64,000 bases of DNA from Candidatus Hadarchaeota archaeon (GCA_964621445.1 CAZUNO010000002.1:64001-128000), one strand, 5' to 3'. Positions 2,727 through 54,320 are shown, numbered from the stretch's first letter. Notes: generated from the letters alone by a model not told the origin. Translations and numbers: made by a program.

Positions 2727-2815
2727 TGGTATCCTCGCAGATCCCCATCACCCCAAACAGCATTTAGTCTTATATAGTTTACCGGAGGGGAATCTGAAAT
2801 TTCCTGAAACAAGGT

Positions 2816-3127
2816 CTACTTATTGAAATCCAGGTCAACACCACAATCCGGGCATTGCCCTCCGTAAGAGCCAAAACAAATCTTGCAGAGGATCTTGCCG
2901 CACTCCGGACATGTGAAGTACCCCCTCTTCATGGAGGTCGTTCCACAAACCGCGCAGGAAATGGTCTCCTTCTCGAAATGTTCAAGATCAATGCCGCAAT
3001 CGGGGCAATTCAGATCGTTCTCCTTTGCACACTTCTCGCAAAGCATCTTCCGGCAATATGGACAGCGATAATAACCGGTCTCTGGTAAGGGGGTCTCACA
3101 AAGGGCACATACTCTTTCTTTGGCCAA
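2816..3127 (-). CDS. Tandem Cys8 (C4C4 RING-like) zinc-finger protein
   Basis: Two repeats of CxxC-x11-CxxC-x4-CxxC-x7-CxxC; likely TTG start at 3127 after a GGTGA RBS (ORF track extends to 3199). Confidence 0.75.
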   Translation of the reverse strand: MAKERVCALCETPLPETGYYRCPYCRKMLCEKCAKENDLNCPDCGIDLEHFEKETISCAVCGTTSMKRGYFTCPECGKILCKICFGSYGGQCPDCGVDLDFNK

Positions 3128-3258
3128 TGGTTTCACCTGGGCTAGAGATATTATTGTCACCGGATCCCTCTCCTGACTTAATAATATATCCGTAACCATT
3201 CAAAACGGGCCGCCCGGGAGGGAAAACCTTTTTCCCAAAATAATCCCCACCAATATGG

Positions 3259-3990
3259 ATGAAGAGAAGATTCAGGGTGATGCCCGCGGTCGACATTAAG
3301 GAAGGGAAGTGCGTGACCTTGGTGGGGGGAGACCCATCCAAGCGGATTTCCGAGCTCGAGGACCCACTCCTGCAGGCCAGGAGATGGGAGAGATGTGGGT
3401 CAAGCATACTACACGTCATAGACCTGGATGGCGCATTGGGGGGACTTCCCGCCAACCTCGACCTAGTCAAGGATATAGCCCGTAAACTGGATATACCGGT
3501 TCAGTTTGGAGGGGGCATTAGAAGCTTGGAAGCAGCGGAGAAGATATTGAATTCGGGCATTTGGAGGATAATTCTTGGAACCCTGGCCCTACATGAGCCA
3601 TCGGTAATAGGGGACCTCTCATCAAGGTTTGACCCGGAGAGGATAATGGTCGCCCTTGATTTCAAGGAAGACAGGGTATTGACCCATGGCTGGAAATCCC
3701 GGTCGGATATTGACCCCTTTACTGCTGCCCAAAGATTCGAAAAATTGGGCGCGGGAAGCGTGCTATTCACAAACGTTGAAGTTGAGGGTAGGATGAAGGG
3801 GCTCCCTATGAAACCCATAAGGAAGATGGTTCGATCAGTTGATATGGAGGTCATTGCCAGCGGGGGCGTTTCCTCGATCGAGGACATAATCTCCATTAAG
3901 AGGGCAGGAGCACAAGGGGCGGTGGTGGGTGCCGCAATATACACGGAAAGAATTAATCTGCGGGAAGCAATAGACCGAGCAGAGAGATAG
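3259..3990 (+). CDS. hisA: ProFAR isomerase HisA
   Basis: PAVDIKEGKCV, LHVIDLDGA, QFGGGIRS, IASGGVSS motifs. Confidence 0.93.
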   Translation: MKRRFRVMPAVDIKEGKCVTLVGGDPSKRISELEDPLLQARRWERCGSSILHVIDLDGALGGLPANLDLVKDIARKLDIPVQFGGGIRSLEAAEKILNSGIWRIILGTLALHEPSVIGDLSSRFDPERIMVALDFKEDRVLTHGWKSRSDIDPFTAAQRFEKLGAGSVLFTNVEVEGRMKGLPMKPIRKMVRSVDMEVIASGGVSSIEDIISIKRAGAQGAVVGAAIYTERINLREAIDRAER

Positions 3991-4587
3991 GTGAAGATAA
4001 TGCTTAAGATAGAGAGGCAAAGGGAGACGAAGGAGACGGATGTATCCATTACCATGGATTTTGATGGATCCGGAAAATCCTCGATAAGTACCGGACTACC
4101 CTTCTTCGACCACATGTTAACCTCCATGGCCAGACATGGAAGGATAGACACCGAGATAGATGTTGAGGGGGATCTTGATGTAGACGACCATCACGTTACC
4201 GAGGACGTGGGAATAGTTCTCGGCGAGGTGATCCTGCAGGCCCAAAAGGAAAGACCCTCGATCCGACGCTTTGGGAGCGCCATAATACCCATGGATGATG
4301 CGCTTATACTCATGGCCATTGACCTTGGGGGCCGGACCTACGTGGATCTAAAGGTCGACTTCAAGAAGGAGTATGTCGGAAGCTTCGTCCTGGATAACAT
4401 CAAGCACTTCATGAGATCGATGGCCGATACCGCCTACATGAATCTCCATGCACACAAGTTATCGGGCAGCGACGATCACCACCTGGCGGAGGCACTATTC
4501 AAGAGCCTGGGAATAAGCCTCTCCCAAGCCCTGAAAAAGGATCCCTCACTCTCCGGAGAGATTCCCAGCACCAAGGGCAGGATCTAG
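3991..4587 (+). CDS. hisB: Imidazoleglycerol-phosphate dehydratase
   Basis: RETKET, FFDHML, DDHHVTED, DDHHLAEALFK, PSTKG. Confidence 0.96.
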   Translation: MKIMLKIERQRETKETDVSITMDFDGSGKSSISTGLPFFDHMLTSMARHGRIDTEIDVEGDLDVDDHHVTEDVGIVLGEVILQAQKERPSIRRFGSAIIPMDDALILMAIDLGGRTYVDLKVDFKKEYVGSFVLDNIKHFMRSMADTAYMNLHAHKLSGSDDHHLAEALFKSLGISLSQALKKDPSLSGEIPSTKGRI

Positions 4588-5249
4588 GACGCTTCATTTC
4601 TTAGGGCTTTTAGGATAAGGAAAATGGCCACCCTTATCCCGCACCACACGGTAACCCCCCGCACGTACTTTTCATACTTTACCGGTACCTCCTTTACCCG
4701 TAGACCCTTGCGCCTCGCCTCGTACAGCAGCTCCGACTCTATCTCGTACTGGTTGGCGGTTAGGTCCATTCCTTCAAGAGCCGAGGCTCGTATGGCCTTC
4801 AACCCGCTCTGGCTATCCCTGACTGGGTTTCGAGTAATCGCATTGGTCAGCTTGGTAAGTCCCCAGTTCCCGATCCTCATGATAAGGGGCGCCGAATCGA
4901 AATAATTGACCCGGTTTCCCAGAACTATGTCCGCCTCGTCATTGAGGATGGGCTCCACCAGGTTGGGGATGTCACTCGGGTAGTGCTCGCCATCACCGTC
5001 AAGCCTTAGAATGATCTCGGCGTCGTATTCCTCCGCTTTCTCCAGCCCTTTCCTGTATGCTGATCCAACTCCCTGGTTCCTATCGATCTTGAACACCTTA
5101 GCCCCTCCCGCAGTCGCCTCCTGGGAGGATAGATCGGTGCTCCCATCATCGATCACTATAACGTTGTCCACATACTTTGAGGCCTCACGGGCTATTTCCT
5201 GAATGGTTTTCTCCTCGTTGTGGACCGGGATCACGCAAATGGTCTTCAA
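4584..5249 (-). CDS. GT2 glycosyltransferase, polyprenol/dolichol-phosphate sugar synthase-like (DPM1/ArnC-like, soluble)
   Basis: VIPVHNEE, DDGSTD, NQGVG, LDGDGEH, DSQSGLKA, YEIESE motifs. Confidence 0.85.
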   Translation of the reverse strand: MKTICVIPVHNEEKTIQEIAREASKYVDNVIVIDDGSTDLSSQEATAGGAKVFKIDRNQGVGSAYRKGLEKAEEYDAEIILRLDGDGEHYPSDIPNLVEPILNDEADIVLGNRVNYFDSAPLIMRIGNWGLTKLTNAITRNPVRDSQSGLKAIRASALEGMDLTANQYEIESELLYEARRKGLRVKEVPVKYEKYVRGVTVWCGIRVAIFLILKALRNEAS

Positions 5250-5297: not shown

Positions 5298-5999
5298 TCA
5301 TTTTCTACTCCAGGCAGCGTCTGGTCCCTCATCCACTATCTTTCCATCAACTATGACCAAACCTCTCTTGCAATGCTTAAGAAAGTTGGGATCATGGCTT
5401 ACCGTGATAATGGTTACCCCCAGGTCCTCGTTTACCCTTCCCAGCAGCTCGTAAACCCTTTCCGATGACCTCGAGTCCAGATTTCCGGTCGGCTCGTCCG
5501 CCAGAAGTATTTTTGGATTATTCGCCAGTGCCCGGGCTATGGCAATTCTCTGTTGTTCCCCACCGGATAGCTGATCAGGCTTATTTAAAGCCCTCTGCTT
5601 GAGCCCGATCAACCCAAGCAATTCGCTGGATCTACTGCTCCTGGACTGGCTATCCTTACCTGATAGGACCATGGGGAATTCGATGTTTTCAACCGCGGTT
5701 AGGGTTGGTATGAGATTATATGACTGGAATACAAATCCAATGGTGTGCAGTCTAAGATCCGATAACTCGTCATCGGAAAGCTGTGAGGTATCGCGTCCGA
5801 ATATCTCTACCAGTCCCGAATTTGGTCTATCCAGACAACCCAAAACGTTCAGAAGGGTCGTTTTTCCGGACCCGGAAGGGCCGGAGACTAACACGAAATC
5901 AGCTTCATCTACACTCAAGCTTACTTCTAGGAGCGCTTCCACCTCGATTTCGCCCGCTTTGTAGATTTTTCGCACTTTACGAGTCTCTACTGCCTTCAA
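5298..5999 (-). CDS. ABC transporter ATP-binding subunit, LolD/MacB family
   Basis: GPSGSGKTT, IGFVFQSYNLIP, LSGGEQQRIAIARAL, ADEPTGNLD. Confidence 0.93.
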   Translation of the reverse strand: MKAVETRKVRKIYKAGEIEVEALLEVSLSVDEADFVLVSGPSGSGKTTLLNVLGCLDRPNSGLVEIFGRDTSQLSDDELSDLRLHTIGFVFQSYNLIPTLTAVENIEFPMVLSGKDSQSRSSRSSELLGLIGLKQRALNKPDQLSGGEQQRIAIARALANNPKILLADEPTGNLDSRSSERVYELLGRVNEDLGVTIITVSHDPNFLKHCKRGLVIVDGKIVDEGPDAAWSRK

Positions 6000-6055
6000 T
6001 TTGGCCCCTCAGGGAGCTGGGAAACCCTTTAAAAGTATTCTGATAAATATTCCCC
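6000..6055. promoter_or_regulatory. Short divergent promoter region between the ABC ATPase/GT2 unit and the permease operon
   Basis: 56-bp intergenic stretch between head-to-head genes, with a TATA-like TTTAAAA at about 6028-6034. Confidence 0.45.
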
Positions 6056-7207
6056 ATGGCCGAGGCCCAATCGATCTGGAAGATGGCCTTTAGGAACCTC
6101 TCGAATCAGAACAAGACCACTATACTAACAGTGGCGGCCATAGCAGTCTGTGTGATGACCTTTGTCTCCATCTTCTCAATCCTCGACGGCCTCCAGTTGT
6201 CCGTTGAGAAGGTAATTAGAGGCTTCTACGGGGAGGAAGGTAGAAGTGCATATGTACTTCCCGCTTCGGATGAAATCGAACAGGGACTTATACCCCGTGC
6301 GGTGGCCGAGGAATATAGAGGACTTGATGATGTATACGGCCTTTCCGAGGAGGATGTGGTGAATTCTTACTACCAGGGAAGAGAGGTGGACCTTCTCGGA
6401 GTTAATCTGGATGACCTTGACGCCACCCACGGATTCCAGGGAATTGATGGCAGGAGCATGGAGAAGGGACCGGAATGCATGGTGGGCTCCACGGCCGCCG
6501 AAATACTTGGCATAGATGTCGACCAAGAGATATCATTGGAACTGGATGACAGCACCGTCGACCTTTTGGTTACGGGAATATACGAGGCCAAGACGTCCCT
6601 CAATGCGAATATCCTGGTGAATAACGAATTCCTTTCCTCCAGAATTCCCCGGTTTAAGGTCAATACCTCCATGCTGCGTATTAAGCTCAAGACGGGAAAC
6701 CTGGAATCGGTAGCCGAATTCACCGAGGAAAACCACCCCGAACTCAGAATCAAGGAATCTGTTCAGGTGAGCAAGTTCTTCCAGAAATCCATCATAAACA
6801 TCTCCCGCCTTCTCAGCACCATCATTATTTTCGTTATACTGCTGATGGTCCTTGGTATATACAATTCAATGAACATGGTGGTTTCGGAGCGAAAAAGGGA
6901 AATTGGGATAATAAGGGCTATGGGAGCCAGGAGGTCCTTCATAGTCAAACTGTTCATGGCCGAAAGTACTATGCTTTCACTTCTAGGGGGCTTATTCGGG
7001 GTCGGGTTGGGAATAGCCATGTCGCATGGAATCACATCGATCTTTTCCATCTTCGTTGCCGGTTCCTCATCTGTCGCTCCCCTCACCAAGCTCACCACCA
7101 TTGGCTGGGCCATGTTTGCCTCCCTGTCGATAGGGCTAATTGGAGGAATTTCCCCGGCAAGTAATGCCTCCAAGGTGGAAATCTCAAGAGCCCTCACGGA
7201 GGTGTGA
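6056..7207 (+). CDS. ABC permease, MacB/LolCE/FtsX family
   Basis: N-terminal TM (MAFRNL...), extracytoplasmic core, C-terminal 3 TM with ERKREIGIIRAMGA. Confidence 0.9.
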   Translation: MAEAQSIWKMAFRNLSNQNKTTILTVAAIAVCVMTFVSIFSILDGLQLSVEKVIRGFYGEEGRSAYVLPASDEIEQGLIPRAVAEEYRGLDDVYGLSEEDVVNSYYQGREVDLLGVNLDDLDATHGFQGIDGRSMEKGPECMVGSTAAEILGIDVDQEISLELDDSTVDLLVTGIYEAKTSLNANILVNNEFLSSRIPRFKVNTSMLRIKLKTGNLESVAEFTEENHPELRIKESVQVSKFFQKSIINISRLLSTIIIFVILLMVLGIYNSMNMVVSERKREIGIIRAMGARRSFIVKLFMAESTMLSLLGGLFGVGLGIAMSHGITSIFSIFVAGSSSVAPLTKLTTIGWAMFASLSIGLIGGISPASNASKVEISRALTEV

Positions 7208-10200
7208 ACATAGAGAGCCGTCTTCTCCATGCCATGAAGATATTTCCTCGTCACAGAATGTGGCTATCCTTAGCCGGGATAATGGTATGCGCCATTCTCT
7301 TCTTCGGGGTGCTCTCCGTGGTTCACTGGCTTAGCTATTCCTCAACCTCCTACTTCGGAGAGCAAGAGGGCATATACGTACTGGCGCAGGAGGAGGCGGC
7401 CACCGTCAAACAATCACAAGTTCCCCTCGCCCTGGCTCCGGCACTAACCAGGATGAATGGAATCCAGGTGGTTTGCCCCGAACTCTTCATATATGGGGTG
7501 TTAAATGATAAGGCTGTCATAATCCGTGGGATATTCCCATCGGATTTCCAATCACTTGAACCGGTCACCCTGATTCAAGGGCGGTGGCTCAGGGACGACG
7601 ATATCAAGGCCGCCGTGGCTGGCCAGAATCTAGCCCGAAAACTGGATCTGAAGGTGAACGATACCTACCTGCTTTCAGGATCCGAGGTTGATGACTTCGT
7701 CAGGATCAGGATCGTGGGCATCTTCAAGGGAGGGGGAATGATTGATGACGACCTACTCATGAACATACACTACGCCAGGTATCTCCAACAGGAAACACAA
7801 CCCGGTTATGCCTCAATAATCCGGGCCAAGGTCAACACCACCATCTGGCCCAGCGTAGAAAGCATCTGGCAATCGGTCAGCGGACTTCCCAATATAACGC
7901 CGCTCCAATATGAACCAACTGCTCCCAACAACACCCAGAGACTGCATTTCACCTGCAATGCCACAGCTCATACCGAAGTGGGCTCGGTCATACTCTACTA
8001 CAAAAAGCAGGGTCTCCATCGCACAATCCAAAAGACCATGATAAAGGGAAATTCAAGTCAGTTTAGGACCCAGATCGGCCCTGTGAAGGACTCCTCATGG
8101 GTACTTTGTTGGGCCAACGCCACTGATATTTTGGGCCACGATCGACGGACGCCTGAGGTTAACATCTCAATAACAGATGCCCTGGGACCGGACATATTCG
8201 ATCTGACAATTGAACCGCCCCCGCCCCAGACAAAGGATCACCTGGTAAACGTCTCCTTCAAGGTATTCGATACAAGCGAAATGGTCAGGAACGTAACCGT
8301 CCACACATATAATGTTGGACTTAATCGTACATTCCACGGAAAGGACTCCACGGGGCGGGCTTACGAGCTAACCCTGGGAAGGTTTGAACCGGGACCATTG
8401 ACCCTTTGGATATCCGCCCGGGATAGATTCGGCAATCTGGCACGAACGGCTCGATACAGGTACAGGATCCTCAATAGGACCGATCAATCCCCTCCCGAAA
8501 TAGGTGAGATGGTATTCGAGCCTGACCCCCCGAATGACAACTCCACCCTGACCGTGAACGTTCCAATGTTCGATGACTCAGAGATCGTTACCGCCGACCT
8601 TATCTATGACTATCAGGTCAAGGGCATTCACTACAATGGGACCCTTAAGATGAATAGAAGCCAGGCCCAGGAGGGCCTTTGGGAAGCGGTAACCGGTTCC
8701 TTTCCGGGTGCCACAACGATTCATTTCAGGATATTCGCCAGGGACCAATTCGGGAACGCCGTATACTCGGAGACCAGGGATGTATTCGTGAGATACTCGG
8801 AGCCACCGGAGGAGCTCCAGGTCTACAGATTCCCCCAATATTCCACTCCCGGCCTCAATAATCTGGTATTCGCCGTTCTCTACGACGCGGCGGAGATCCA
8901 GGAGGTCAACTTCACCTTCGTGGAAGCGGGTAGATGGACCAACCTCTCCATACCCGTGGGGATAACTACCTTTAGGGAACCCTTTCTCCTGGGGCGCCTA
9001 TCAACCGGGTTCAAGGAATATAATCTCTCCATGGAGGACAGGCGGGAAGAGGTGACCAGATATCCAGGACAGGGACTGGAAGGGTTCCTTGTTCAGCGAA
9101 AAAGACCCCACATAGAGGATATACAGTATTCCTCGACTGTAAGGAAGGGCTTTCCCCTAATGGTGACCTTCAGGGCAGTCGGCGTCTTCCCACTAAGCGA
9201 GGTATATACCACCGACTCCAGAGGGGTAGTGGAAAAATGCGAAAGGATTGAGGGTGAATATACCGCGATCCTGGGTCCATACTCCAAGCCGGGTGACTAC
9301 TCCTTCAGTATAACTACCCAGGACTGGGCGGGCAATACACGGACCATTGAAGACCGGGAATTCACCGTAGAGGAGGAATCGATAACCGATATCGACTTCA
9401 CGCCAAAACCGCCCATTCTGGGAGAGGAGCTAACCGTGACCTGTAGGGTGATCGGGGACTCTCCCCGCAAGAAGGTCCGGCTCATAGCACCTGTGGGCGG
9501 CAAGTACGTGTTGACTCCAATGGAATTGGAGGAGGGGAGGAGATTCGCGTCCATACCCATCGATAGCCCTGGTATTCTACCCTTCTCGGTACAGGTCGAG
9601 GATGGAGAGGATCTGATACGCTCAAAAACCGTACGGCTTAACGTCGGTTCCAACCACTCATCATTGTACCTGGCTCACAGCCCACCCCATCCTCTGAGTA
9701 CCCAGAATATAACAATCTCCATCTTTGCCAGGTCGGGTCATAACCTGAAATCGCTGGAACTGGAATGGAAAAATGGATCCCACGAGATTCCACATCGCAA
9801 GGTCTGGAGGCTAGAGGGGACGGAAACGAGATTAGACTTCAAACCGGGAAGGCAAATAGAGGGGACCCTTCTTTACAGGGCAATTCTTACCACTGAAATG
9901 GGTAGCCTTACCTATCCCCTGACGGAGGACGAGTGGCTCGGGATCTCCATCACCAAAAACCTGTTTACCCCCCCGGAAATTGGAAGATTATCCCTATCCC
10001 CCCAGACTTACGTGGGACTGGATGGGAACAGGGGACAGGATTTCCTTGTTGAGGTCGGTTGCCCAATTTCCTTTGACCAGGGTATATCCTCGGTTGAGAT
10101 AGATTACGTGGTAGACCAGAGAACCTATAACGAGCCACTCCTACCGGTTTCCCGGAAATACGGGCTCTCCTCAAGGTTTTATTCAGCCTATCTCGGTCCC

Positions 10201-13200
10201 TTCCCCACCAACGAGACCATAAGTTGTCAGGTCACTGCCAGAAGCATCTCGGGATTGGAATCCTCCACCCCGGAGGTGAGCTATGTCCTCCGGGATACGG
10301 AACCTCCGGAGATACAGGATATATATCACGACCCCCTACACCCTGAACCCAAAAAGGAAATAACCATTGGGTGCGAGGTAACCGATGACTCGGGTGTCAA
10401 GGACGTTTTGCTGCTGTACGGCGGCAATGGCACCCAAAATGCAGAGCGCATGATGCGGTACGGAAATACCTACACTCTGGACCTTCTCTCCCCGCCCGCG
10501 GGCGAATCCCTCACCTATGCAATACAGGCCACGGATAACTACGGCAACAGCAACCAGTCCTTGCCGGGTACCGTTACCTCTAGGGACGAAACCCCACCCG
10601 ATATATGGGAGGTCACCCATGACCCGCTGGAACCAACGGATAATGACAGCGTCAACATAACCGTCCGACTCATCGATCGGCAGGATGAAATCGAAAACGT
10701 GACCCTACTCTGGTACCAGTACACCTGGAAGAACCAGACCAAGAAGGGGGGCAGCGGGTACATTACCAGGGTATTCCAGATCGATGCCTCTGAGTTTGAC
10801 CCGGGAATGAACGTACGGTACAAGATCGAGGCCTTTGACCGTTCGGGAAACAAGGCGGTCTACCCCAACGTAGAGCAGGGAGAAACGCCTCCTTCTCCAC
10901 TTCTCTATGGCGATAATCCTAATTCCCTGAGACAGGAAGCATGGGAACCCTATCTCACCTTCCGGGTTGTCGACAGATCCCCTCCCGTTCTCACCCTTGA
11001 TGCCCAGCCCGAAAGTCCAAATGAACTTGAAACCGTTACCTTCGAGGTGTCAGCGGAGGACAATCACCTTCTCAGGAACTACACGCTTCACCTATGGGTG
11101 TCAGGGGTTTACAGGCCTTTCAGCGAGCAGGTAGGTCGTCCTAGCTTCAGGGACGAGTTCTCCTCCGGTCCCCTAGAACCGGCATCCACCATAGTTTGCT
11201 ATCTTGAGGCATACGACAGGTCCGGTAATTATGCCCGGTTTCCGGCTCGCTCCAACCTTACCATAGATGTGGAGAGGTTCGAATGGGGAGGCGAGATGGC
11301 CGCCGTCGATCCCAGGGTTGACCTTGAAGTCGCCGGCCCGGCCGGTTTTTCTCAGGGAATGGCCAGACAGGGAGCGGGAAAGATAATCGCCAGCATAAAT
11401 GGCATCCTTTTCATGACCTTTCTGGCCACCGTGGCCGGCATCGGCAATATAGTCTACACCTCGGTTTTCAAATCGAAGAGGGAAATAGGCCTGGTCCGAA
11501 CATTAGGGGGGAGCAAGAAATTCGTCACCCTTCTGGTGGCCTCGGTTACCGTCCTGCTGGGCCTGACCGCTGCCTTGATCGGGTGTGTAATTGCCTACCT
11601 GCTGATAACGGTGTTTTCTAACCTAGGAGCCTCCCTTGCCTGGGTCACCTTGAAGCCCACATTCAATATCCTTATTCTGGCAGCGACTTCAGCGGCCGCG
11701 GTGACCATTAGCCTCTTCGGTGGAATGGTAGCCCTTACCAGGCTTTTTTCATATACCCCTGTGGAATCGATAAGGACGGTGACCGCGCCCCAAGCGAAGA
11801 GGGAGCATCCAACCTACATCGAGAATACAAGGCGTTTCCCCGCAAAGACCATCGCCGTTTTACTCCTCATCACCATTAGTGCCGCTGCCATGATGCGCCT
11901 ATATCCTACATATATCTCCGAGCAGCCCTTCGATCCCGATTCCTGGTTGCACCTAACCGCTGCATCCGATATGCGGGAGACCGGCCATCTGAGACTCGAT
12001 TACGCTTCCCGGGAAATGCAGGCGGTCAGCGCCCTCCCTGGCCTCAACATCCTGCTGGTCGTATCCCAGGTATTGACCGGGAGCGAGATGATCCCAGCGA
12101 GGATCATAACCCCCATCATATCATCACTTGGCTTGATCCTGGCCTTTGTACTGGCCAGGAAACTCTCCAGGAGCGATATCGTGGCAGGAATGACCGCGAT
12201 CATACTGGCAGTGGTTGGCTTTTATGCCAACCGAACGGCAGCGCTTACCAAGGAGGCCCTCGCACTCCAGATGCTCCTACTCTGCCTCTACATGTTATAC
12301 CTAAGCCACATCTCCAGAAGCACCAAGCACAAGACTCTGCTAGTTGCCATTTCCGTTGCCCTGATGCTGACCCATCACCTAACGGCCATCTATTTCATGC
12401 TGATTTTTGTGGGATACATCTTTCTGAGAATCTTCCACAAGTATTCCCAGGGTGTCATCGACCCCCTGGAGGTCAAGCAGGATGCCCTAACCGGTCTTGG
12501 GGTCCTAACCAGCTATCTTATCATCAGCTTCACCCTGGGCAAGTACGAAACTCCGATACCATTCCAGGACTCCCTTCTGATAATATCCCTGTTCTTCGTG
12601 ACCATCGGATTCGGAAGAATTTTGCTTTCGTCATCATTCTTGGGCCAGCACCGGAGATCTATATCCCTGGTCGCAGCCCTGGGTACGGTTACCTTCCCCT
12701 TCATCGCCTACCGCGCCGGGCTCTTCTCCTACGCACCATGGGAACAGGTCCTCCCCATGATAGCCCCCCACTTGTCCCTTCTGGCCATAGCGATCCTGGC
12801 CCTGTTCCCGGTCTCCCTGCTCTCAGAAAATCGAAAGTCCTTCATCTTGGCCTGGGCCTCTGCCGTGATTCCCTTCCTATTATTTGGACTTGTCAAAAGG
12901 GATATCTTCGGCTACATACTGCTCTTCAGGAACATCTCATACGGTTATCAACTATCGGCCATATTGGTAGGCATCGCCTTCGTCTATGCCTACAAGCGTT
13001 TCGAGGCCGGAGGTCAGGATGGAATCCGCACCGGGCTGGTTGCCATAGCCGCGGTGCTCCTCATGACCAACCTTCTATTCGCCTCCCACATGGGTTTTCT
13101 GTCCCGCCCTTATGAGAAGAAGGACCTATACACGACCACGGAGTTCAACGCGGCCTTGAAGGTGAACCAATCAACCCTAAGAGGTCAGCTGGTAGGGTCG

Positions 13201-13500
13201 GACGAACGTGGTCGCCGGCTTCTATTGTACGTAACTGGGGAGGATGGAGACCAGATCACGACCTACGTCTATATGATCAGGATGGAAAAATGGTTAATAA
13301 ACAGGCTTAACGAACAGGTCAACTTGACCGAGAAGCCGCTGACCCATATCCTCACCTATGACGAGATGTTTGAGGTCGGTTTCGTGGATCAGGTACTGTT
13401 CAAGGATGTGGAAAGGCTAGAGCTCAATCGATATGAGGACGTCATTCTGGACAACGGCGGTGAACACCTCATTTACGTGGCCAGGAAGGAATGGCCGTAG
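7204..13500 (+). CDS. Giant 2098-aa fusion: MacB-type ABC permease with about 11 Ig-like repeats and a C-terminal GT-C-like multi-pass membrane domain
   Basis: TM1 plus MacB core (IIRGI, QGRWL, RIVGIF); about 100-aa repeats starting D.xPPxI..xP..P and often ending AxDxxGN; FtsX motif KSKREIGLVRTLGG at about aa 1425; then PFDPDSWLH...GH, roughly ten TMs, HHLT and a soluble C-terminal domain. Confidence 0.85.
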   Translation: MNIESRLLHAMKIFPRHRMWLSLAGIMVCAILFFGVLSVVHWLSYSSTSYFGEQEGIYVLAQEEAATVKQSQVPLALAPALTRMNGIQVVCPELFIYGVLNDKAVIIRGIFPSDFQSLEPVTLIQGRWLRDDDIKAAVAGQNLARKLDLKVNDTYLLSGSEVDDFVRIRIVGIFKGGGMIDDDLLMNIHYARYLQQETQPGYASIIRAKVNTTIWPSVESIWQSVSGLPNITPLQYEPTAPNNTQRLHFTCNATAHTEVGSVILYYKKQGLHRTIQKTMIKGNSSQFRTQIGPVKDSSWVLCWANATDILGHDRRTPEVNISITDALGPDIFDLTIEPPPPQTKDHLVNVSFKVFDTSEMVRNVTVHTYNVGLNRTFHGKDSTGRAYELTLGRFEPGPLTLWISARDRFGNLARTARYRYRILNRTDQSPPEIGEMVFEPDPPNDNSTLTVNVPMFDDSEIVTADLIYDYQVKGIHYNGTLKMNRSQAQEGLWEAVTGSFPGATTIHFRIFARDQFGNAVYSETRDVFVRYSEPPEELQVYRFPQYSTPGLNNLVFAVLYDAAEIQEVNFTFVEAGRWTNLSIPVGITTFREPFLLGRLSTGFKEYNLSMEDRREEVTRYPGQGLEGFLVQRKRPHIEDIQYSSTVRKGFPLMVTFRAVGVFPLSEVYTTDSRGVVEKCERIEGEYTAILGPYSKPGDYSFSITTQDWAGNTRTIEDREFTVEEESITDIDFTPKPPILGEELTVTCRVIGDSPRKKVRLIAPVGGKYVLTPMELEEGRRFASIPIDSPGILPFSVQVEDGEDLIRSKTVRLNVGSNHSSLYLAHSPPHPLSTQNITISIFARSGHNLKSLELEWKNGSHEIPHRKVWRLEGTETRLDFKPGRQIEGTLLYRAILTTEMGSLTYPLTEDEWLGISITKNLFTPPEIGRLSLSPQTYVGLDGNRGQDFLVEVGCPISFDQGISSVEIDYVVDQRTYNEPLLPVSRKYGLSSRFYSAYLGPFPTNETISCQVTARSISGLESSTPEVSYVLRDTEPPEIQDIYHDPLHPEPKKEITIGCEVTDDSGVKDVLLLYGGNGTQNAERMMRYGNTYTLDLLSPPAGESLTYAIQATDNYGNSNQSLPGTVTSRDETPPDIWEVTHDPLEPTDNDSVNITVRLIDRQDEIENVTLLWYQYTWKNQTKKGGSGYITRVFQIDASEFDPGMNVRYKIEAFDRSGNKAVYPNVEQGETPPSPLLYGDNPNSLRQEAWEPYLTFRVVDRSPPVLTLDAQPESPNELETVTFEVSAEDNHLLRNYTLHLWVSGVYRPFSEQVGRPSFRDEFSSGPLEPASTIVCYLEAYDRSGNYARFPARSNLTIDVERFEWGGEMAAVDPRVDLEVAGPAGFSQGMARQGAGKIIASINGILFMTFLATVAGIGNIVYTSVFKSKREIGLVRTLGGSKKFVTLLVASVTVLLGLTAALIGCVIAYLLITVFSNLGASLAWVTLKPTFNILILAATSAAAVTISLFGGMVALTRLFSYTPVESIRTVTAPQAKREHPTYIENTRRFPAKTIAVLLLITISAAAMMRLYPTYISEQPFDPDSWLHLTAASDMRETGHLRLDYASREMQAVSALPGLNILLVVSQVLTGSEMIPARIITPIISSLGLILAFVLARKLSRSDIVAGMTAIILAVVGFYANRTAALTKEALALQMLLLCLYMLYLSHISRSTKHKTLLVAISVALMLTHHLTAIYFMLIFVGYIFLRIFHKYSQGVIDPLEVKQDALTGLGVLTSYLIISFTLGKYETPIPFQDSLLIISLFFVTIGFGRILLSSSFLGQHRRSISLVAALGTVTFPFIAYRAGLFSYAPWEQVLPMIAPHLSLLAIAILALFPVSLLSENRKSFILAWASAVIPFLLFGLVKRDIFGYILLFRNISYGYQLSAILVGIAFVYAYKRFEAGGQDGIRTGLVAIAAVLLMTNLLFASHMGFLSRPYEKKDLYTTTEFNAALKVNQSTLRGQLVGSDERGRRLLLYVTGEDGDQITTYVYMIRMEKWLINRLNEQVNLTEKPLTHILTYDEMFEVGFVDQVLFKDVERLELNRYEDVILDNGGEHLIYVARKEWP

Positions 13501-14310
13501 GTGCTTGTCTTGGAGAGATCTTTGGCCATCAGAGTAGACATCGACACCATCAAGGGGCTCTTGGATGGGGTCCCCATTCTACTGGACATGTTCGACGACC
13601 TGGGAATCCAGGCCACGTTTTTCGGCTGTGTGGGGCCGGATAAGACCTCGAGAAGTTTCCTGCAAGCTCCGCGAATCGCCAGGCATGTTTCCGTAAATCC
13701 CCTGAAAAAATTCGGGCTCCGTGAAATCATGGGTTCCATTAAAGGCCTTGATTTCCGCAAGCATGACGGGGAACTGAGGGAGATCCAGGAAAGGGGCCAC
13801 GAACTACAGCTCCACGCCTTCGATCATCTGGATTGGATAAAAAGGGTGGAGAACCTTGACCTATCGGGGACCAGGTCACTTATCGAGAGGGGCATACGTA
13901 GCTTTGAGGCAATCACCGGCAGGAAACCCCGGGGTTTCGCATGTCCAGCCTTCAGGGTTACGGAGAATGTCCTGCTGGCTGAACAGGAGCTGGGATTCGA
14001 CTATGCAAGCGATTATCATGATCTTCTGAGGACTGTTCCCTTCAAGCCGCAGGAATCATCGGTTCTACAGATACCGGTGAACGCTCCTCTGATAGAAGAT
14101 ATGGTAGCAAAGGGTTTGAGCGATGCGCAAATACTATCCAGGCTCAAAAACATTGTAGATCAAACCCCGCTGACCGTGTTTTATCTACATCCCTGCTATG
14201 AGCCTCGGCTAAAAGGGGACCTACTGAGGGATTTCATAGAACAGGCCCTGGAAAAGGCCCGTCATGTGAAATTTTGGGAGGTGTGGAAAAGCTGGAGTCA
14301 TTGCGCATAG
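13501..14310 (+). CDS. ArnD-like polysaccharide deacetylase/deformylase (CE4/NodB superfamily)
   Basis: LAIRVDIDT..G...GVP.LL....GIQATFF..VGPD N-terminus resembles ArnD; HELQLHAFDH, GFACPAF, DYASD. Confidence 0.82.
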   Translation: MLVLERSLAIRVDIDTIKGLLDGVPILLDMFDDLGIQATFFGCVGPDKTSRSFLQAPRIARHVSVNPLKKFGLREIMGSIKGLDFRKHDGELREIQERGHELQLHAFDHLDWIKRVENLDLSGTRSLIERGIRSFEAITGRKPRGFACPAFRVTENVLLAEQELGFDYASDYHDLLRTVPFKPQESSVLQIPVNAPLIEDMVAKGLSDAQILSRLKNIVDQTPLTVFYLHPCYEPRLKGDLLRDFIEQALEKARHVKFWEVWKSWSHCA

Positions 14311-15464
14311 TGATGATCTACGAGCTGGGACCTAAGGACGACGGTTCATTTCTCGGTGGCATAGAGTCCCACATACTGGGTCTTGCCAAGGAGCTAGCTC
14401 ATGACCATCAGGTAACCATTCTAACCGGCGCCATACCGGGGGAGAGAGATAAAACTGATCTCGATGGGCTGAATGTCATTAGATCCGATATCATGGGAAT
14501 GGTTTCTCGATCCTGGAACCCCACCAACCTTACAACGAGGCGACAGATCTTCTCCACCCCCGCCTTTCTAAGGACGGGAATCGACCTGGATGCCGACATT
14601 TACCACGGACATATTTACACCTCGGGGATTTCAGCTCTGGGCCTGGCATCGCTTGGTTCCGGTGGTTCGGTTAACACCATACACGGGTCCTACTATGACC
14701 ACTGGGAATCAATTACCAACTCGAGCCTCAAACCCCATGCCTACAGAGTGGCCGAGAGATTATTGGCAACGTTCCTAGCTCGCAATTGCGATAGACAGAT
14801 ACACACGGCAACCGATTTCGCGGTTAAGGTCAGGCAGTGGGGGGCACCGCAAGAAAAGGTCCAGGTAATACTCAACGGGGTTGATACCGATAGATTCTCA
14901 CCTCAGGTAAATCCCCGCGAACAATCGGACATACCAATAGTGATGACGGTTCGTCGGTTGGTACCCAAGAACGGGGTCCACCATTTCATCCAGGCCTGCA
15001 GCCATTTGGAGAGGGAATCTAGATTCGTTATAGTTGGCGATGGTCCTTCCAGACCGGGTCTAGAGTCGCTGGCGAGGAGGATAGGGGTGGACGACCGGGT
15101 TGAATTCCGTGGCGCAATTCCCAACAACCAGATGCCAGGAATCATCGCCGGTGCCGACGTGTTAGTTATCCCCAGTTTGGTCGAGGCCTCCAGCATATCC
15201 CTATTGGAGGCAATGGCCATGGCAAAGCCAACGGTGGTCACCAACATACCGGGCATCGACGAGGTAGCAAGTCCGGAGAGAAGCATCATGGTTCCACCCG
15301 GGAACCCCGAGGCCATCGCAACGGGCATTGATCACCTTCTATCCGATAGGAAGAAAGCGAGGGAACTTGGAAGAAAAGGACGAGAATACGTGGTCGCTAA
15401 TCGATCCATCAAGAAGATGACGGAGAAAACAATGATCATCTACCGCCAGGCACTCGAGTCCTAG
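14301..15464 (+). CDS. GT4 family glycosyltransferase
   Basis: GGIESH, NGVDTDRF, RRLVPKNG, VGDGP, PSLVEASSISLLEAMA; probable TTG start at 14301 (ORF track starts 14274). Confidence 0.9.
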   Translation: MRIVMIYELGPKDDGSFLGGIESHILGLAKELAHDHQVTILTGAIPGERDKTDLDGLNVIRSDIMGMVSRSWNPTNLTTRRQIFSTPAFLRTGIDLDADIYHGHIYTSGISALGLASLGSGGSVNTIHGSYYDHWESITNSSLKPHAYRVAERLLATFLARNCDRQIHTATDFAVKVRQWGAPQEKVQVILNGVDTDRFSPQVNPREQSDIPIVMTVRRLVPKNGVHHFIQACSHLERESRFVIVGDGPSRPGLESLARRIGVDDRVEFRGAIPNNQMPGIIAGADVLVIPSLVEASSISLLEAMAMAKPTVVTNIPGIDEVASPERSIMVPPGNPEAIATGIDHLLSDRKKARELGRKGREYVVANRSIKKMTEKTMIIYRQALES

Positions 15465-15838
15465 ACCCTGGACAGCAGGATCAAGGCCAGTATACCACAC
15501 CCGATCCCTGCCGCTATCCTCAGATCTACCTCCTCGCCCAGCAATACAACGCATAGAACCGCGAACAGGACGTTTCCCAGGACAATAACCAGGTTCAAGC
15601 CCAGTACGGCAGGTACATCGTTTGACAGGAAAGCCAGATCCACCGCCAAAACCACCAGGCCCATCAGAAGAACAAGGTAGACATATGGATTTCTAGCCAG
15701 GGAGAAAAGAAAGGATGGGCTCAGGACCTGGGATAGCGAGGTTTCGTCGAGCTTATCCGCTGCAACCTTGTGAAAAAAGAGATTAAGACCACTAAGCACT
15801 CCAGCAACTATGGCGAATAATAGGATCTTACCCTGCAA
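15461..15838 (-). CDS. Small 4-TM EamA/SMR-type membrane protein, ArnE/ArnF-like putative lipid-linked sugar flippase
   Basis: 125 aa, four hydrophobic segments, LLGEEV...IAAGI ending typical of the DMT superfamily. Confidence 0.65.
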   Translation of the reverse strand: MQGKILLFAIVAGVLSGLNLFFHKVAADKLDETSLSQVLSPSFLFSLARNPYVYLVLLMGLVVLAVDLAFLSNDVPAVLGLNLVIVLGNVLFAVLCVVLLGEEVDLRIAAGIGCGILALILLSRV

Positions 15839-15840: not shown

Positions 15841-16656
15841 TTAGCCCCCCGAGGCTTCAGCCGCCCTCTCCTGGCTGGACTCCACCCTCCTAAACACGAA
15901 GAACCAGAAAACGAAGATCCAACCTATAAAGAACACGAAACCAAAATAGTCATGGAAGGTCTTCATGGCCTCAAACCCTATATAATAGGTTATGAGAGAA
16001 AGAACCACTATCCTCACTATATTGGCCGAGTAGGTCCCGGCCGCCCCCACAAGGAAGTAAACGCTACCCATCTTCTTGTCCATCCTATCCCTGAGATCAA
16101 CCAGCATCATGGCGAAGAAAGCCAGGAACAGGAAGGAGGAATGGATCCCCGAACAGGCCTCAGTAACCAGAAGGGTCACCGGCCGAGAGTGGTCGGGGGC
16201 TGAAAGAACTATCTCGTTTCCTGCTCCCGAAAAGGGAATACCCATCATGCTCAGCACCGCCCTGGAAAAATACATCACGTTTCCAAGCCAGGCCCTGCCG
16301 AAAGAGGTCTCCAGTATGTACTTATCGAATCCAATGGTTATCAAGAAATAAAAAACCAGAACCGGGGTAACGAAGAAGTAAAGCAAAGTCCGATAACGTA
16401 GCAGAAAATCGTACTCCCGCGACAGATAGCGATAGGCCAGGAACAAGGAACCGATCCCCACAAAAACCAAGCCGGACGCAACAGCCAGATCAGAGGAACG
16501 AACACGCTGGAAAAGGACGTATGAAACAAGCGCAAAAGCCAGGTACCCATAACCGAGGATCGAAACCTGAGAGAACGACACATTCTCCTTTATGGCGGAG
16601 ACCGGCCTCATAGAGATGAAGGACAGCGTATATCTAATAAATGGCTTGCGAATCAC
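15841..16656 (-). CDS. Archaeosortase/exosortase family transpeptidase
   Basis: Multi-TM; catalytic motif VTEACSGIHS, ANIVRIV (Arg), FHDYFG (His). Confidence 0.9.
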   Translation of the reverse strand: MIRKPFIRYTLSFISMRPVSAIKENVSFSQVSILGYGYLAFALVSYVLFQRVRSSDLAVASGLVFVGIGSLFLAYRYLSREYDFLLRYRTLLYFFVTPVLVFYFLITIGFDKYILETSFGRAWLGNVMYFSRAVLSMMGIPFSGAGNEIVLSAPDHSRPVTLLVTEACSGIHSSFLFLAFFAMMLVDLRDRMDKKMGSVYFLVGAAGTYSANIVRIVVLSLITYYIGFEAMKTFHDYFGFVFFIGWIFVFWFFVFRRVESSQERAAEASGG

Positions 16657-16662: not shown

Positions 16663-17520
16663 TTATAAATCCAACCAGGGCCGGAGTAGAAATGTGCAAA
16701 ACAGCAGACAGCCAAGAGGAATTGCTATCACTATTACCAGGGGCAGGTCTCTCTGGGGCAGGGTACCTGCCTTGATTATCTTGATCGCTTCTGGGTCAGT
16801 AACCCCCTTCTCCTGCATTTTTTCTAGCAAAGCGGTGAGTTGCCAATAGTACGAGGTGAAACTCACAAATGCCGTAAACTCGCTCTCGACCCCTTCTGGA
16901 GGGCTATCCAGCTTGACCGCTTCCCGGTAAGCATCTCTAATGGCCATTGCCTTCTCCCGGTTTTTGCCTATCACGGTTTCATAACTGGGATAATCAAACA
17001 CCGTATTCCCCACCACCATGTACGAATCGCCCTGGATAACTATGGTTTTGCTAGGCATGAAATTGTATTGAGAACCAGAAACTGCAGATCTCACACCCAC
17101 CAGGCAGAGCATCACTATTGAGAAATATACCAGATCACGCCAGGCCGCATTCCAGCCCTTTCTCGAGGGGCACCTAAGGTAGATCAAGGCGATGACGCAC
17201 ACTAATAGTGCCAAAGCAGAAACGGTCACCGGGGGGTCCAGCAGGCCATTGCCGAGGCGGAACTTCTGGCCCAAGAGGTTCAGAACATCGTGGAAAAAAA
17301 ATAGATTGAGCAACGGCCCGGTGTCCAATTTCCCGTCTCCGTAAAGCCGAGTTATTTGTGGAAATACCGCCAGGGACCCCAGTGTGGACACGACTACTGC
17401 CACTCGGTAGGAACTGATCTCGGGGTTATCCTCCTCCCTCCTCTTTGGAATAGAAATTCCAAAGATGATCAAGCAACACCCCACGATCGCGCCGAAAAAG
17501 AAATGCGCGAGAGGATTCAT
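16663..17520 (-). CDS. Membrane protein of unknown function (N-terminus resembles membrane-bound metal-dependent hydrolases)
   Basis: MNPLAHFFFG start, several TMs, FFFHD motif, about 100-aa soluble loop, C-terminal TM; 6 bp upstream of the archaeosortase gene. Confidence 0.6.
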   Translation of the reverse strand: MNPLAHFFFGAIVGCCLIIFGISIPKRREEDNPEISSYRVAVVVSTLGSLAVFPQITRLYGDGKLDTGPLLNLFFFHDVLNLLGQKFRLGNGLLDPPVTVSALALLVCVIALIYLRCPSRKGWNAAWRDLVYFSIVMLCLVGVRSAVSGSQYNFMPSKTIVIQGDSYMVVGNTVFDYPSYETVIGKNREKAMAIRDAYREAVKLDSPPEGVESEFTAFVSFTSYYWQLTALLEKMQEKGVTDPEAIKIIKAGTLPQRDLPLVIVIAIPLGCLLFCTFLLRPWLDL

Positions 17521-17640
17521 TGAAATGAAGCAGCCGACTGGGCTGATTAATATTTCACCGGCATTAAATCAAAGGTAATAGCTTCAAATCCACGGGCTCT
17601 CGATACATTTAAGAGATAAATCGAGCCCCGTTTGCCTGGG

Positions 17641-18897
17641 ATGGGCCGCAAGAAAATAATCATTCTAGGTATGGGTAGGATAGGGCTACCCACTGCTGCA
17701 TGTCTAGCCAACGCTGGTCACCAGGTACTTGGAGTCGATATAGATCAACGAAAGGTTGCCGATATCCGCGAGGGGAGGATAGATGGCAAGGAACCTGGAT
17801 TATCCGAAATGGTACTATCGGCCATGGAGTCGGGGACCCTCCGCATTTCAACGGAGCCGGTCCGGGGCGACGTATTCCTGCTTTGCCTGCCCACCCTGCT
17901 CAAGGAGGATAGGACATGTGATCTATCGGCCATTTCCTCCGCGATGGACTCCATATCAAATGTCATCTCGCCGGGCAATCTGATTATCCTGGAATCCACC
18001 GTGCCGGTACATACCACCCGGGATTTCCTGATACCTGGGCTGGAAAAGAGAGGAGTGGACACCTGTAAGGTGCTCTTCGCTTATGCCCCGGAGAGAATAA
18101 TGTCGGGAAGAATGCTGGAAGAGATAAGGAAGGATGACCGGATAATCGGTGTCACAAGTGAAAAGGCTGCAAAACTAGCCAGAGAGGTGTACGAGAGCTT
18201 CGTTGAGGGGGACATTTTCATTACCGATACCTCCACGGCCGAATTGGTGAAGCTCGCGGAAAACACCTACAGAGACATAAACATAGCTTACGCCAACGAG
18301 GTCGCCCTCTTCTGTCAGCGGGAAGGGATCGATGCCCGACGTGCAATAGAGCTGGCCAATAGGCATCCCCGGGTTGAGATACATCGCCCAGGACCCGGAG
18401 TTGGAGGCCACTGCATACCCGTGGTCCCTCATTTCCTGGCCCAGAATAATAGCTACGATATGATGATAAAAGCGGCGAGAAAAGTAAACGAATCCATGCC
18501 GAGATATATAGCCAACATGATAACCAGGACCATAAGCGGAGCGGAGCAACCAAAGGTCTCCCTTATGGGCATGGCCTATAAGTCCGGCTCAGGGGACACC
18601 GTAAACAGCCCGGGATTACAGATTCTGGAGCATCTCCAGGGTGAGAGGATGGAAATTCTCCTATGCGACCCACTTGTAAGAAACCAGGAAATGGACCTTG
18701 TGGAAATGGAGGAGGCCCTTTCATCGGACTGCATCGTCTTTCTAGTCGCCCATCAGCAATTCAAGGAAATTGATCCACCCAAACCCAAGAAGGCCATGGC
18801 GACCGTCATAGATACCGCAAACTGCATAGAGCCGCGGAAATGGATCCGGCAAGGCTGGAAAATTAAACGTTTCGCATCCAAGAATCCTAAGGCTTAA
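17641..18897 (+). CDS. wecC: Nucleotide-sugar dehydrogenase, UDP-N-acetyl-D-mannosamine dehydrogenase (WecC)-like
   Basis: GMGRIGLP, LESTVP, APERI, KLAENTYRDINIA, PGPGVGGHCIP. Confidence 0.8.
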   Translation: MGRKKIIILGMGRIGLPTAACLANAGHQVLGVDIDQRKVADIREGRIDGKEPGLSEMVLSAMESGTLRISTEPVRGDVFLLCLPTLLKEDRTCDLSAISSAMDSISNVISPGNLIILESTVPVHTTRDFLIPGLEKRGVDTCKVLFAYAPERIMSGRMLEEIRKDDRIIGVTSEKAAKLAREVYESFVEGDIFITDTSTAELVKLAENTYRDINIAYANEVALFCQREGIDARRAIELANRHPRVEIHRPGPGVGGHCIPVVPHFLAQNNSYDMMIKAARKVNESMPRYIANMITRTISGAEQPKVSLMGMAYKSGSGDTVNSPGLQILEHLQGERMEILLCDPLVRNQEMDLVEMEEALSSDCIVFLVAHQQFKEIDPPKPKKAMATVIDTANCIEPRKWIRQGWKIKRFASKNPKA

Positions 18898-54319: not shown

Positions 54320-54320
54320 T

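Follow-up and report, generated by a model that had tools for sequence, protein, structure and literature searches.

Type VII ATP-binding cassette (ABC) permeases, as found in MacB, LolCDE and FtsEX, are not known to conduct substrates across the membrane; they pass ATP-driven movement to an external domain, and it is through machines of this kind that ATP energy is known to cross a membrane as movement. The LolCDE machine is a lipoprotein extractor, and in FtsEX, working with EnvC, PcsB, RipC or CwlO, the ABC motor activates an enzyme outside the cell. Glycosyltransferases of the GT-C fold, among them oligosaccharyltransferase (OST), ArnT, the PMTs and the mycobacterial arabinosyltransferases, act on the far side of the membrane, and their energy is thought to come entirely from the lipid-linked donor. 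Here we describe a gene that appears to join these two kinds of protein in a single polypeptide. It lies in 64,000 nucleotides of DNA from Candidatus Hadarchaeota archaeon (GCA_964621445.1, CAZUNO010000002.1:64001-128000); this whole stretch is referred to as the window and positions are counted from its first letter. The gene encodes a MacB/FtsX-type permease which continues, through a short linker, into a membrane domain with a predicted GT-C fold.

As in LolCDE and MacB, the locus encodes two permeases with FtsX and MacB_PCD domains and a separate ATPase of the LolD/MacB type; the order of a first transmembrane helix (TM1), an extracytoplasmic core and an FtsX block of three transmembrane (TM) helices is the same and the KREIG loop is conserved. 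It differs from them in being archaeal, in that one permease carries an insert of ~1165 amino acids and a GT-C extension of 578 amino acids, and in that the heterodimer is one we infer; LolCE scores are 13.5 and 69.9 bits here, far below the equivalog cut-off of 362. The locus resembles FtsEX in pairing a type VII ABC module with a predicted extracytoplasmic cell-surface enzyme, and its ATPase also matches FtsE. The enzyme of FtsEX, however, is a separate soluble hydrolase on the extracytoplasmic domain, whereas here a predicted membrane glycosyltransferase is fused at the cytoplasmic C-terminus.

The third point of comparison is the three-component system, set out in the part of PMC11127046 drawn on here as a polyprenyl-phosphate sugar synthase, a flippase (SMR or MATE) and a GT-C enzyme. 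As in the Arn and Gtr systems, a polyprenyl-phosphate glycosyltransferase of family GT2, an ArnD-like deacetylase, a small protein with four TM segments and a putative GT-C enzyme lie in one cluster in the window. We know of no Arn/Gtr-type system that has an ABC motor fused to its GT-C enzyme. The reading that we favour, and hold to be probable rather than secure, is that the fused protein is the GT-C transferase of an Arn/Gtr-type lipid-linked sugar route, welded to one permease of a heterodimeric LolCDE-like type VII ABC motor. The route is taken to be of Arn/Gtr type because the cluster has a counterpart for each role: lipid-sugar synthase, deacylase, flippase candidate and GT-C enzyme. 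A complete set of LolCDE-like ABC genes is present in addition.

The initial annotation of this DNA knew of no characterised protein with such an architecture, and our search of the full-text literature (main texts, subscription-only papers lying outside its scope) agrees, finding no description of an ABC permease/GT-C fusion; the words FtsX, MacB and permease are likewise absent from the main text of an archaeal fusion survey (PMC11237513), as far as the portion of that source used here extends. The protein is not categorically new, because both halves belong to known kinds, and it is their combination that is apparently undescribed.

Architecture and relatives of the fused protein

The gene and its parts are as follows.

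7204-13500 (+): fused gene, MacB/FtsX permease plus predicted GT-C domain; 2098 amino acids from GTG 7204, probably 2088 from ATG 7234
7204-7878 (+): TM1 (amino acids 22-40) and MacB-type extracytoplasmic core (amino acids 1-225), by Pfam MacB_PCD and hydropathy
7879-11373 (+): insert of ~1165 amino acids (226-1390), predicted to form about a dozen Ig/FN3-like beta-sandwich modules, by AlphaFold2 model and sequons
11374-11763 (+): FtsX block of three TM helices (amino acids 1391-1520), KREIG loop at nucleotides 11476-11490, by Pfam FtsX
11764-11847 (+): linker of 28 amino acids (1521-1548), basic (6 K/R versus 3 D/E), predicted cytoplasmic
11848-13098 (+): predicted GT-C-fold membrane domain (amino acids 1549-1965, ~13 helices), PFDPDSWLH at nucleotides 11926-11952 and HHLT at 12373-12384
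13099-13497 (+): small soluble alpha/beta C-terminal domain (amino acids 1966-2098), predicted extracellular, by model secondary structure

Positions 7204-13500 form one open frame of 2098 codons without interruption, as the initial annotation had reported, and eight collinear proteins are present in public collections. The G+C content is 52-55% around the frame and even across the permease/GT-C junction; an open frame of this length at that composition is far beyond chance. The annotation had the gene begin at 7204. ATG 7234 (amino acid 11) is the likelier start, because four of the eight orthologues begin at the aligned methionine and three more carry a methionine there. The four motifs that it had located were all recovered at their positions: KREIG at amino acid 1425 (nucleotide 11476), PVESIR at 1519, PFDPDSWLH at 1575 (nucleotide 11926) and HHLT at 1724. 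Its assignment of TM1 and a MacB core followed by an FtsX block is upheld by Pfam, with MacB_PCD (PF12704) at amino acids 20-198 (8e-13, 49.6 bits versus a cut-off of 27) and FtsX (PF02687) at amino acids 1401-1518 (8.7e-9, 35.9 bits versus 25.5), both above their gathering scores and the sole Pfam matches of the full 2098-amino-acid protein. Orthologues are 69-82% identical in the TM1/core region; the FtsX block is gap-free and 66-84% identical among those of ~2090 amino acids, and R1426, E1427, I1428 and G1429 of the KREIG loop are invariant in all nine fused proteins. After PVESIR the protein runs on for 578 residues, so that the type VII trait of ending soon after TM4 is absent; this extension beyond TM4 of the FtsX block is the novelty of the fused permease.

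A word-index search with amino acids 1540-2098 returned eight other proteins of 2074-2109 amino acids, each on a different contig, with the same domain order and 55-69% identity over the whole C-terminal part. The junction (amino acids 1500-1560), whose soundness the initial annotation had questioned, is gap-free in all nine fused proteins and 39-71% identical in the eight others, and the linker has a constant length of 28 amino acids throughout. An exhaustive HMMER search with the C-terminal part gave 107 matches at E<=1e-3, of which 84 were covered by a Pfam scan (P0006 and mostly short fragments were left out); 77 of the 84 belong to no Pfam family. Shorter fused forms were found among the relatives. 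P0016 (1121 amino acids) has MacB_PCD, a short insert and FtsX, followed by the GT-C domain at 32% identity; P0072 (817 amino acids) has MacB_PCD, FtsX and the GT-C domain with no insert, and a C-terminal PMT_2 match (6.7e-5); P0014 is a fragment with FtsX and the GT-C domain. A search seeded with P0016 yielded five clusters of 1106-1127 amino acids with MacB_PCD and FtsX, one of them from a Theionarchaea metagenome-assembled genome (MAG). The ~1120-amino-acid proteins are named at source as 'ABC transporter permease' or 'lipoprotein release system permease', public annotations that overlook half of the protein. Homologues with the same domain order, which the initial annotation had looked to as a check, therefore exist in three sizes, with eight proteins of ~2090 amino acids, five clusters of ~1120 and one protein of 817. 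A profile search for longer proteins missed P0016, whose length lies within the range searched, which shows that the word-index searches do not find everything and makes these counts lower bounds.

A quick maximum-likelihood tree of the GT-C domain was built from 94 rows, being the 95 of 118 matched proteins that span >350 profile positions, after removal of P0005, a protein identical to that of the window. All MacB-fused forms fall on one side of a branch, grouped as (P0072, (P0016, ten ~2090-amino-acid-type sequences)) with SH-aLRT values of 82, 91 and 100. The tree is consistent with one fusion event and later enlargement of the insert, though P0072 is a long, compositionally odd branch.

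The initial annotation had described a repeat insertion of ~1130 amino acids between the MacB core and the FtsX block. The insert itself stands, at ~1165 amino acids, and its AlphaFold2 model is all-beta with ~90 strands (pLDDT, the predicted local distance difference test score, 73.2; pTM, the predicted template modelling score, 0.42). Its repeat character does not: BLASTP self-comparison found no internal repeats at E<=0.01. Short motifs (PP[ED]I and D..GN) recur along it, and the modules are too diverged for self-matches, so that the insert is better described as a string of beta-sandwich modules than as a sequence repeat. Foldseek returned generic tandem Ig/FN3/macroglobulin arrays only, which give no functional clue, and a Pfam Big_13 match is weak (0.002). 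There are 28 N-x-S/T sequons in the insert, or 2.4 per 100 amino acids versus 0.51 expected from composition, and 11 are kept in all eight orthologues, an enrichment and conservation that make it very likely that the insert lies outside the cell and is glycosylated. As a lineage-specific feature, short in the ~1120-amino-acid form and absent from P0072, it does not belong to the core that the fused forms share.

One Hadarchaeota MAG has an orthologue that is cut off at two contig ends, L002 (match 5388-8392) and L003 (match 1-4221). The two pieces cover query amino acids 1-1218 and 287-2098 and overlap by ~930 amino acids; either the assembly broke within the repeat-like insert or the pieces come from two strain variants.

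The C-terminal membrane domain

Amino acids 1541-2098 (558 residues) were modelled with AlphaFold2 from a 66-sequence alignment (A2) holding the window piece, P0015 and 64 stand-alone proteins of ~480-580 amino acids; it drew on 65 of the other 106 HMMER matches, with fused, much longer and fragmentary rows left out. The model has a mean pLDDT of 88.9 and a pTM of 0.91. When it was compared with the PDB by Foldseek, all 26 matches at E<=1e-3 were GT-C glycosyltransferases or chains of OST complexes: ranks 1-19 are STT3, PglB and AglB entries (E 3.8e-9 to 6e-6; query TM-score, TMq, 0.48-0.59), ranks 20, 21 and 23 are DPY19, rank 22 is AftA, ranks 24 and 26 are ArnT and rank 25 is ALG12. The first fold of another kind appears at E 1.2e-2 with a TMq of 0.15. 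Sequence identity in the structural alignments with OSTs is 9-14%. Judged by this model, the C-terminal part has a GT-C fold, which the initial annotation had proposed for amino acids 1545-2098 with AlphaFold and Foldseek as the means of checking it. Other features of that proposal needed adjustment or gained detail. The membrane part has ~13 helices rather than about ten (11 strongly hydrophobic segments by hydropathy, 14 long helices in the model), and the soluble C-terminal domain is seen in the model as an alpha/beta domain of ~130 amino acids, to which a PAS-like profile gives a weak match (E 0.003). Both the acidic motif of the first loop and HHLT, which the annotation had singled out, are invariant: PFDPD.WLH, including D1577 and D1579, and HHLT are present in all nine fused proteins, and D1579 and H1724 recur in at least 90% of the 66 family members.

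Also kept in at least 90% of the 66 are P1575, P1612, K1683, R1909, D2000 and G2059. A conserved acidic residue in the first extracytoplasmic loop is a hallmark of GT-C enzymes, and D1579 lies in the DPD of the first loop, 8-12 residues past the first helix of the GT-C domain. D1579, K1683, H1724 and R1909 are candidate catalytic residues, their conservation being as expected of a catalytic site. In MacB topology the fourth TM helix of the FtsX permease ends in the cytoplasm; because of this, and because the linker is basic, the first GT-C helix is predicted to run from inside to outside, which would place D1579 outside, as expected of the GT-C first-loop acidic residue. The ~130-amino-acid C-terminal domain is probably outside the cell as well, since the modelled fold is OST-like with ~13 helices and a sequon at N1988 is kept in all eight orthologues. 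A three-chain complex prediction with TM1 (amino acids 11-60), the FtsX block (1385-1530) and the GT-C part (1541-2098) scored 0.00 and was run without controls, and so counts neither for nor against docking of these parts.

The OSTs STT3, AglB and PglB are the best structural matches, and resemble the domain in having, as is predicted here, an external C-terminal domain after ~13 TM helices and a DxD-like acidic motif in the first loop. Unlike them, amino acids 1541-2098 lack WWDxG (no WWD or WW[DE][YWF]G), give no STT3 Pfam match at E<=10 and no match to an OST sequence in the PDB by phmmer or profile, and end in a soluble domain of only ~130 amino acids in place of the large external domain of OSTs. 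By its sequence the domain is not an oligosaccharyltransferase in the strict sense, nor is it detectably ArnT; it is not recognisable as ArnT/GT83 and its Foldseek match to ArnT (2.7e-4, TMq 0.42) is weaker than those to OSTs. An OST paralogue was accordingly considered and ruled out, there being no WWDxG motif.

Most relatives of the domain are stand-alone proteins of ~520-560 amino acids, a typical GT-C size. Its Atlas neighbours are archaeal clusters of ~545-564 amino acids, one auto-named RgtA/B/C/D-like and another with PMT_2 in 12% of its members. These stand-alone archaeal PMT_2/RgtA-D-like glycosyltransferases are homologous over the whole GT-C domain (E to 6e-16) and have the same conserved D, K, H and R, but have no ABC permease fusion. 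They point to a sizeable archaeal GT-C family that is invisible to Pfam and NCBIfam. Archaeal PMT-family glycosyltransferases have been described in other contexts (compare arCOG00563/00566 in the part of PMC5898192 consulted).

Two members of the family have other N-terminal partners. P0117 (1061 amino acids), from another clade, has MatE (MATE/MOP) at amino acids 264-388 ahead of the GT-C region at 522-967 and may, by its domain content, be a flippase-GT-C fusion; it is of interest because MATE proteins are the proposed flippases of three-component systems, according to the same portion of PMC11127046. P0110 (680 amino acids) has DUF1616 ahead of the same GT-C domain.

Partner genes and the proposed mechanism

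The genes on either side of the fused gene that enter into the proposed machine and sugar route, together with the last gene of the operon, are these.

6056-7207 (+): MacB/FtsX-type permease, 383 amino acids; Pfam FtsX 3.8e-17, MacB_PCD 4.4e-11; NCBIfam lolCE 1.8e-19
5298-5999 (-): ABC ATPase of the LolD/MacB/FtsE kind, 233 amino acids; NCBIfam LolD 4.9e-68, MacB nucleotide-binding domain 4.3e-67, FtsE 4.5e-62
4584-5249 (-): GT2 of the polyprenyl-phosphate sugar synthase kind, 221 amino acids; Pfam Glycos_transf_2 3.4e-25
13501-14310 (+): ArnD-like CE4 deacetylase/deformylase, 269 amino acids, no TM helix, cytoplasmic; Pfam Polysacc_deac_1, NCBIfam ArnD
14274-15464 (+): GT4 (GT-B fold), last gene of the operon; Pfam Glycos_transf_1 2.6e-33, Glyco_transf_4 6.4e-19
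15461-15838 (-): small membrane protein with four TM segments, 125 amino acids; EamA/SMR clusters by Atlas features search

The stop codon of the 383-amino-acid permease overlaps the GTG at 7204, and the protein is 56-61% identical and in the same position in the related loci L001, L002 and L004; it is the predicted heterodimer partner of the fused protein. The ATPase is transcribed divergently from the permease operon across an A+T-rich spacer of 56 bp and has all of its motifs intact: Walker A (GPSGSGKT), the Q-loop, LSGGE, Walker B (ILLADE) and the H-switch (SHD). The best-scoring models for the ATPase and this permease are LolD and LolCE respectively.

The GT2 gene has the same orientation as the ATPase gene and its product is 78-81% identical in L001, L002 and L004. 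NCBIfam matches are to AglJ (8.5e-35), polyprenyl-phospho-GalNAc synthase PpgS (3.1e-26), dolichyl-phosphate hexose transferase (3.5e-20) and ArnC (2e-8), and PDB matches are to the Pyrococcus furiosus Dol-P-Man synthase 5mlz (3e-12) and ArnC 9hwj (9.6e-6); it is predicted to make the lipid-linked donor. The ArnD-like gene starts one base past the stop codon of the fusion. Its product matches NCBIfam ArnD at 3.2e-29 over 250 amino acids and PDB ArnD 8t0j at 7.4e-18, with 27% identity over 233 amino acids to E. coli ArnD (E 2e-24), and is predicted to strip the N-acyl group from the lipid-linked sugar. The GT4 gene, for which ATG at 14313 is the likelier start, has its best NCBIfam match with the PEP-CTERM/XrtA-system glycosyltransferase stp2 (1.3e-32, below its cut-off).

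The 125-amino-acid protein has no Pfam, NCBIfam or PDB match. The Atlas features search links it to EamA/SMR clusters (score 0.94-0.95, 203-207 shared features), and its counterparts in L001, L003 and L004, three of three related loci that cover the position, occupy the same place with 62-69% conservation. As a lead only, it might flip the lipid-linked sugar, taking the role of ArnE/F or GtrA. Its orthologue in L001 (18272-18597, -) aligns in two pieces, amino acids 1-80 and 77-109, which suggests a frameshift or a sequencing indel. Gene order is the same in L001, L004 and the contig pieces L002 and L003. No AglB/STT3 gene was found in the window by Pfam, applied to the main open reading frames (ORFs) before 22 kb and to ORFs >=150 amino acids beyond (40 of the 45 listed there, five inside longer opposite-strand ORFs being left out), and no counterparts of ArnA or ArnB were seen next to the cluster.

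We propose a machine built of the 383-amino-acid permease, the fused protein and the LolD-like ATPase in two copies, in which the fused permease would run on from its C-terminus through the short cytoplasmic linker into a complete GT-C glycosyltransferase. At the cytoplasmic face the GT2 would attach to dolichyl or polyprenyl phosphate a sugar that is probably an N-acyl amino sugar; the ArnD-like enzyme would then take the acyl group off the lipid-linked sugar; and the SMR/EamA-like protein, or possibly another factor, would flip it across the membrane. Outside the cell the GT-C domain would pass the sugar to an acceptor, using the first-loop aspartate D1579. The ABC half would carry no sugar across the membrane. 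ATP binding and hydrolysis would instead move the extracytoplasmic domain, which here bears a glycosylated arm of ~12 beta-sandwich modules. Through this movement the acceptor or product would be captured, positioned or released at the active site of the GT-C domain, much as LolCDE extracts lipoproteins and FtsEX activates external enzymes. Given that type VII permeases are not known to conduct substrates, presenting the acceptor or removing the product is the most economical role for the ABC half. The identity of donor and acceptor, and the direction and nature of the coupling, are inferences; as the initial annotation had proposed, the ABC cycle may be mechanically coupled to glycosyl transfer.

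Several results weigh against this reading. All NCBIfam scores of the GT2 are below the equivalog cut-offs, and the ArnD score of the deacetylase is 102 bits versus an equivalog cut-off of 382. The 125-amino-acid protein has no BLASTP similarity to E. coli ArnE or ArnF, a point of difference from Arn systems, and its EamA/SMR assignment comes from one language-model lead. For the GT-C domain the sequence-only routes failed and only fold comparison succeeded: amino acids 1541-2098 alone give no Pfam match at E<=10 and no NCBIfam match at E<=1, neither phmmer nor the 66-sequence profile retrieved anything meaningful from PDB sequences, and PMT_2 is touched by only five of the 66 family members (best 1.1e-4). 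The family profile aligns with E. coli ArnT at an hhalign probability of 2.7% (E 0.017), so that the likeness to Arn lies in the logic of the pathway and not in orthology. The conserved gene order is seen only in the close relatives L001-L004 (53-59% identity) and also spans the unrelated genes hisB, tRNA endonuclease and RLI, and is therefore weak evidence of functional linkage.

A bolder proposal, which we offer tentatively and think doubtful as it stands, is that this is the first energy-coupled GT-C enzyme, with catalysis outside the cell, a place that lacks ATP, mechanically driven or gated by a cytoplasmic ABC motor by way of the MacB-type permease to which it is covalently joined, and that it had one fusion origin in archaea followed by a growing, heavily glycosylated beta-sandwich arm (817, then ~1120, then ~2090 amino acids). 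The drive or gate could act on acceptor capture, on product release or on extraction of a lipid-anchored product. If so, the protein would be a machine dedicated to constructing or altering the cell envelope in Hadarchaeota- and Theionarchaea-like archaea. The conserved covalent fusion suggests that in some archaea ATP powers or gates glycosylation at the cell surface, and it offers a single polypeptide in which the coupling of ATP to glycosylation could be studied by structure and mutagenesis.

Alternative functions and other features of the window

The ABC half might itself be the flippase, handing lipid-linked sugar straight to the fused GT-C domain in place of GtrA, ArnEF or a MATE protein. 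We consider this unlikely, given that MacB/FtsX-type permeases form a tightly packed four-helix bundle, are not known to have a substrate path through the membrane and act on substrates that are already outside, and that the SMR/EamA-like gene for a four-TM protein is kept in all three related loci that cover its position. A transporter fused to the enzyme that consumes its cargo would nonetheless be a sensible arrangement, the flippase assignment of the 125-amino-acid protein is weak, and P0117 has MatE N-terminal to its GT-C region, MATE proteins being the flippases proposed for three-component systems in the part of PMC11127046 used above.

Another possibility is suggested by two genes beyond the four-TM protein.

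15841-16656 (-): archaeosortase-family gene; exo_archaeo signature 57 bits versus a cut-off of 23, ArtC 2.2e-16
16663-17520 (-): membrane protein of 285 amino acids, no family match, adjoining the archaeosortase gene

The archaeosortase may be a distinct subtype, because its ArtC score is below the ArtC cut-off. It is kept at 70-74% identity, and the 285-amino-acid protein at 40-42%, in L001, L003 and L004. With this pair four genes downstream of the fused gene, the locus could serve archaeosortase-linked maturation of the surface, in which a LolCDE-like module extracts or handles surface proteins that carry a lipid anchor and have been processed by the archaeosortase, and the GT-C domain glycosylates either these or the sequon-rich arm of its own protein. 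The LolD and LolCE models are indeed the best for the ATPase and partner permease, structurally the GT-C domain matches OSTs best, enzymes that glycosylate proteins, the GT4 scores best with a PEP-CTERM/XrtA glycosyltransferase, and the deacetylase touches an XrtA-system deacetylase model (1.6e-7). The same deacetylase, however, fits ArnD (3.2e-29) far better, WWDxG is absent, and the genes have been seen together only in close relatives, whose synteny is broad; a substrate bearing a sorting signal did not come to light, no search aimed at such signals having been made. On these grounds we regard this function as improbable.

It is more doubtful still, and in our view quite improbable, that the GT-C-fold domain is no transferase at all and serves as a module for binding or sensing a lipid carrier or glycolipid, or as an anchor, for a MacB-type exporter or an FtsEX-like regulator. 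GT-C-like folds without shown activity do exist, and the domain has no sequence-level match to any curated glycosyltransferase family; against this, at least 90% of the 66 distantly related members retain the first-loop Asp and the Lys, His and Arg, most relatives are stand-alone proteins of typical GT-C size, and the operon encodes a GT2 predicted to make the donor and an enzyme predicted to deacetylate the lipid-linked sugar. An assembly or frame artefact joining two genes, to which the indels mentioned elsewhere in the assembly by the initial annotation and the related gene broken at the contig ends of L002 and L003 inside the insert might seem to point, has a negligible probability, because the junction is gap-free and 39-71% identical in eight of eight ~2090-amino-acid proteins on other contigs, the more distant ~1120- and 817-amino-acid forms are also fused, and G+C content is even across the junction.

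The window as a whole is archaeal, with genes for a tRNA-splicing endonuclease, RLI/ABCE1, an RPA-like OB-fold protein, the archaeosortase, aIF2-gamma and aIF5B; the closest genome records are Hadarchaeota MAGs and one MAG labelled 'uncultured Thermococci'. A nucleotide-sugar dehydrogenase at 17632-18897 (+), closest to UDP-ManNAc dehydrogenase (3.5e-99, below the equivalog cut-off), and a UDP-GlcNAc 2-epimerase at 37028-38119 (+; 1.9e-97) suggest synthesis of UDP-ManNAcA, a possible sugar source for the locus. The run of genes at 51645-57618 encodes an FMN-dependent dehydrogenase-like protein, aconitase X (1.4e-155), a UbiD-family decarboxylase, a GHMP kinase and an amino-acid-kinase-family protein. 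We take it to resemble the archaeal-type mevalonate pathway, the FMN protein possibly being IDI2 and the amino-acid kinase possibly isopentenyl phosphate kinase; so assigned, it would supply the isoprenoid lipids and carriers needed by a glycosylation system. Two convergent genes for Rce1-like CAAX-type intramembrane proteases lie side by side at 42731-43429 (+; 2.1e-12) and 43438-44253 (-; 9.6e-14).

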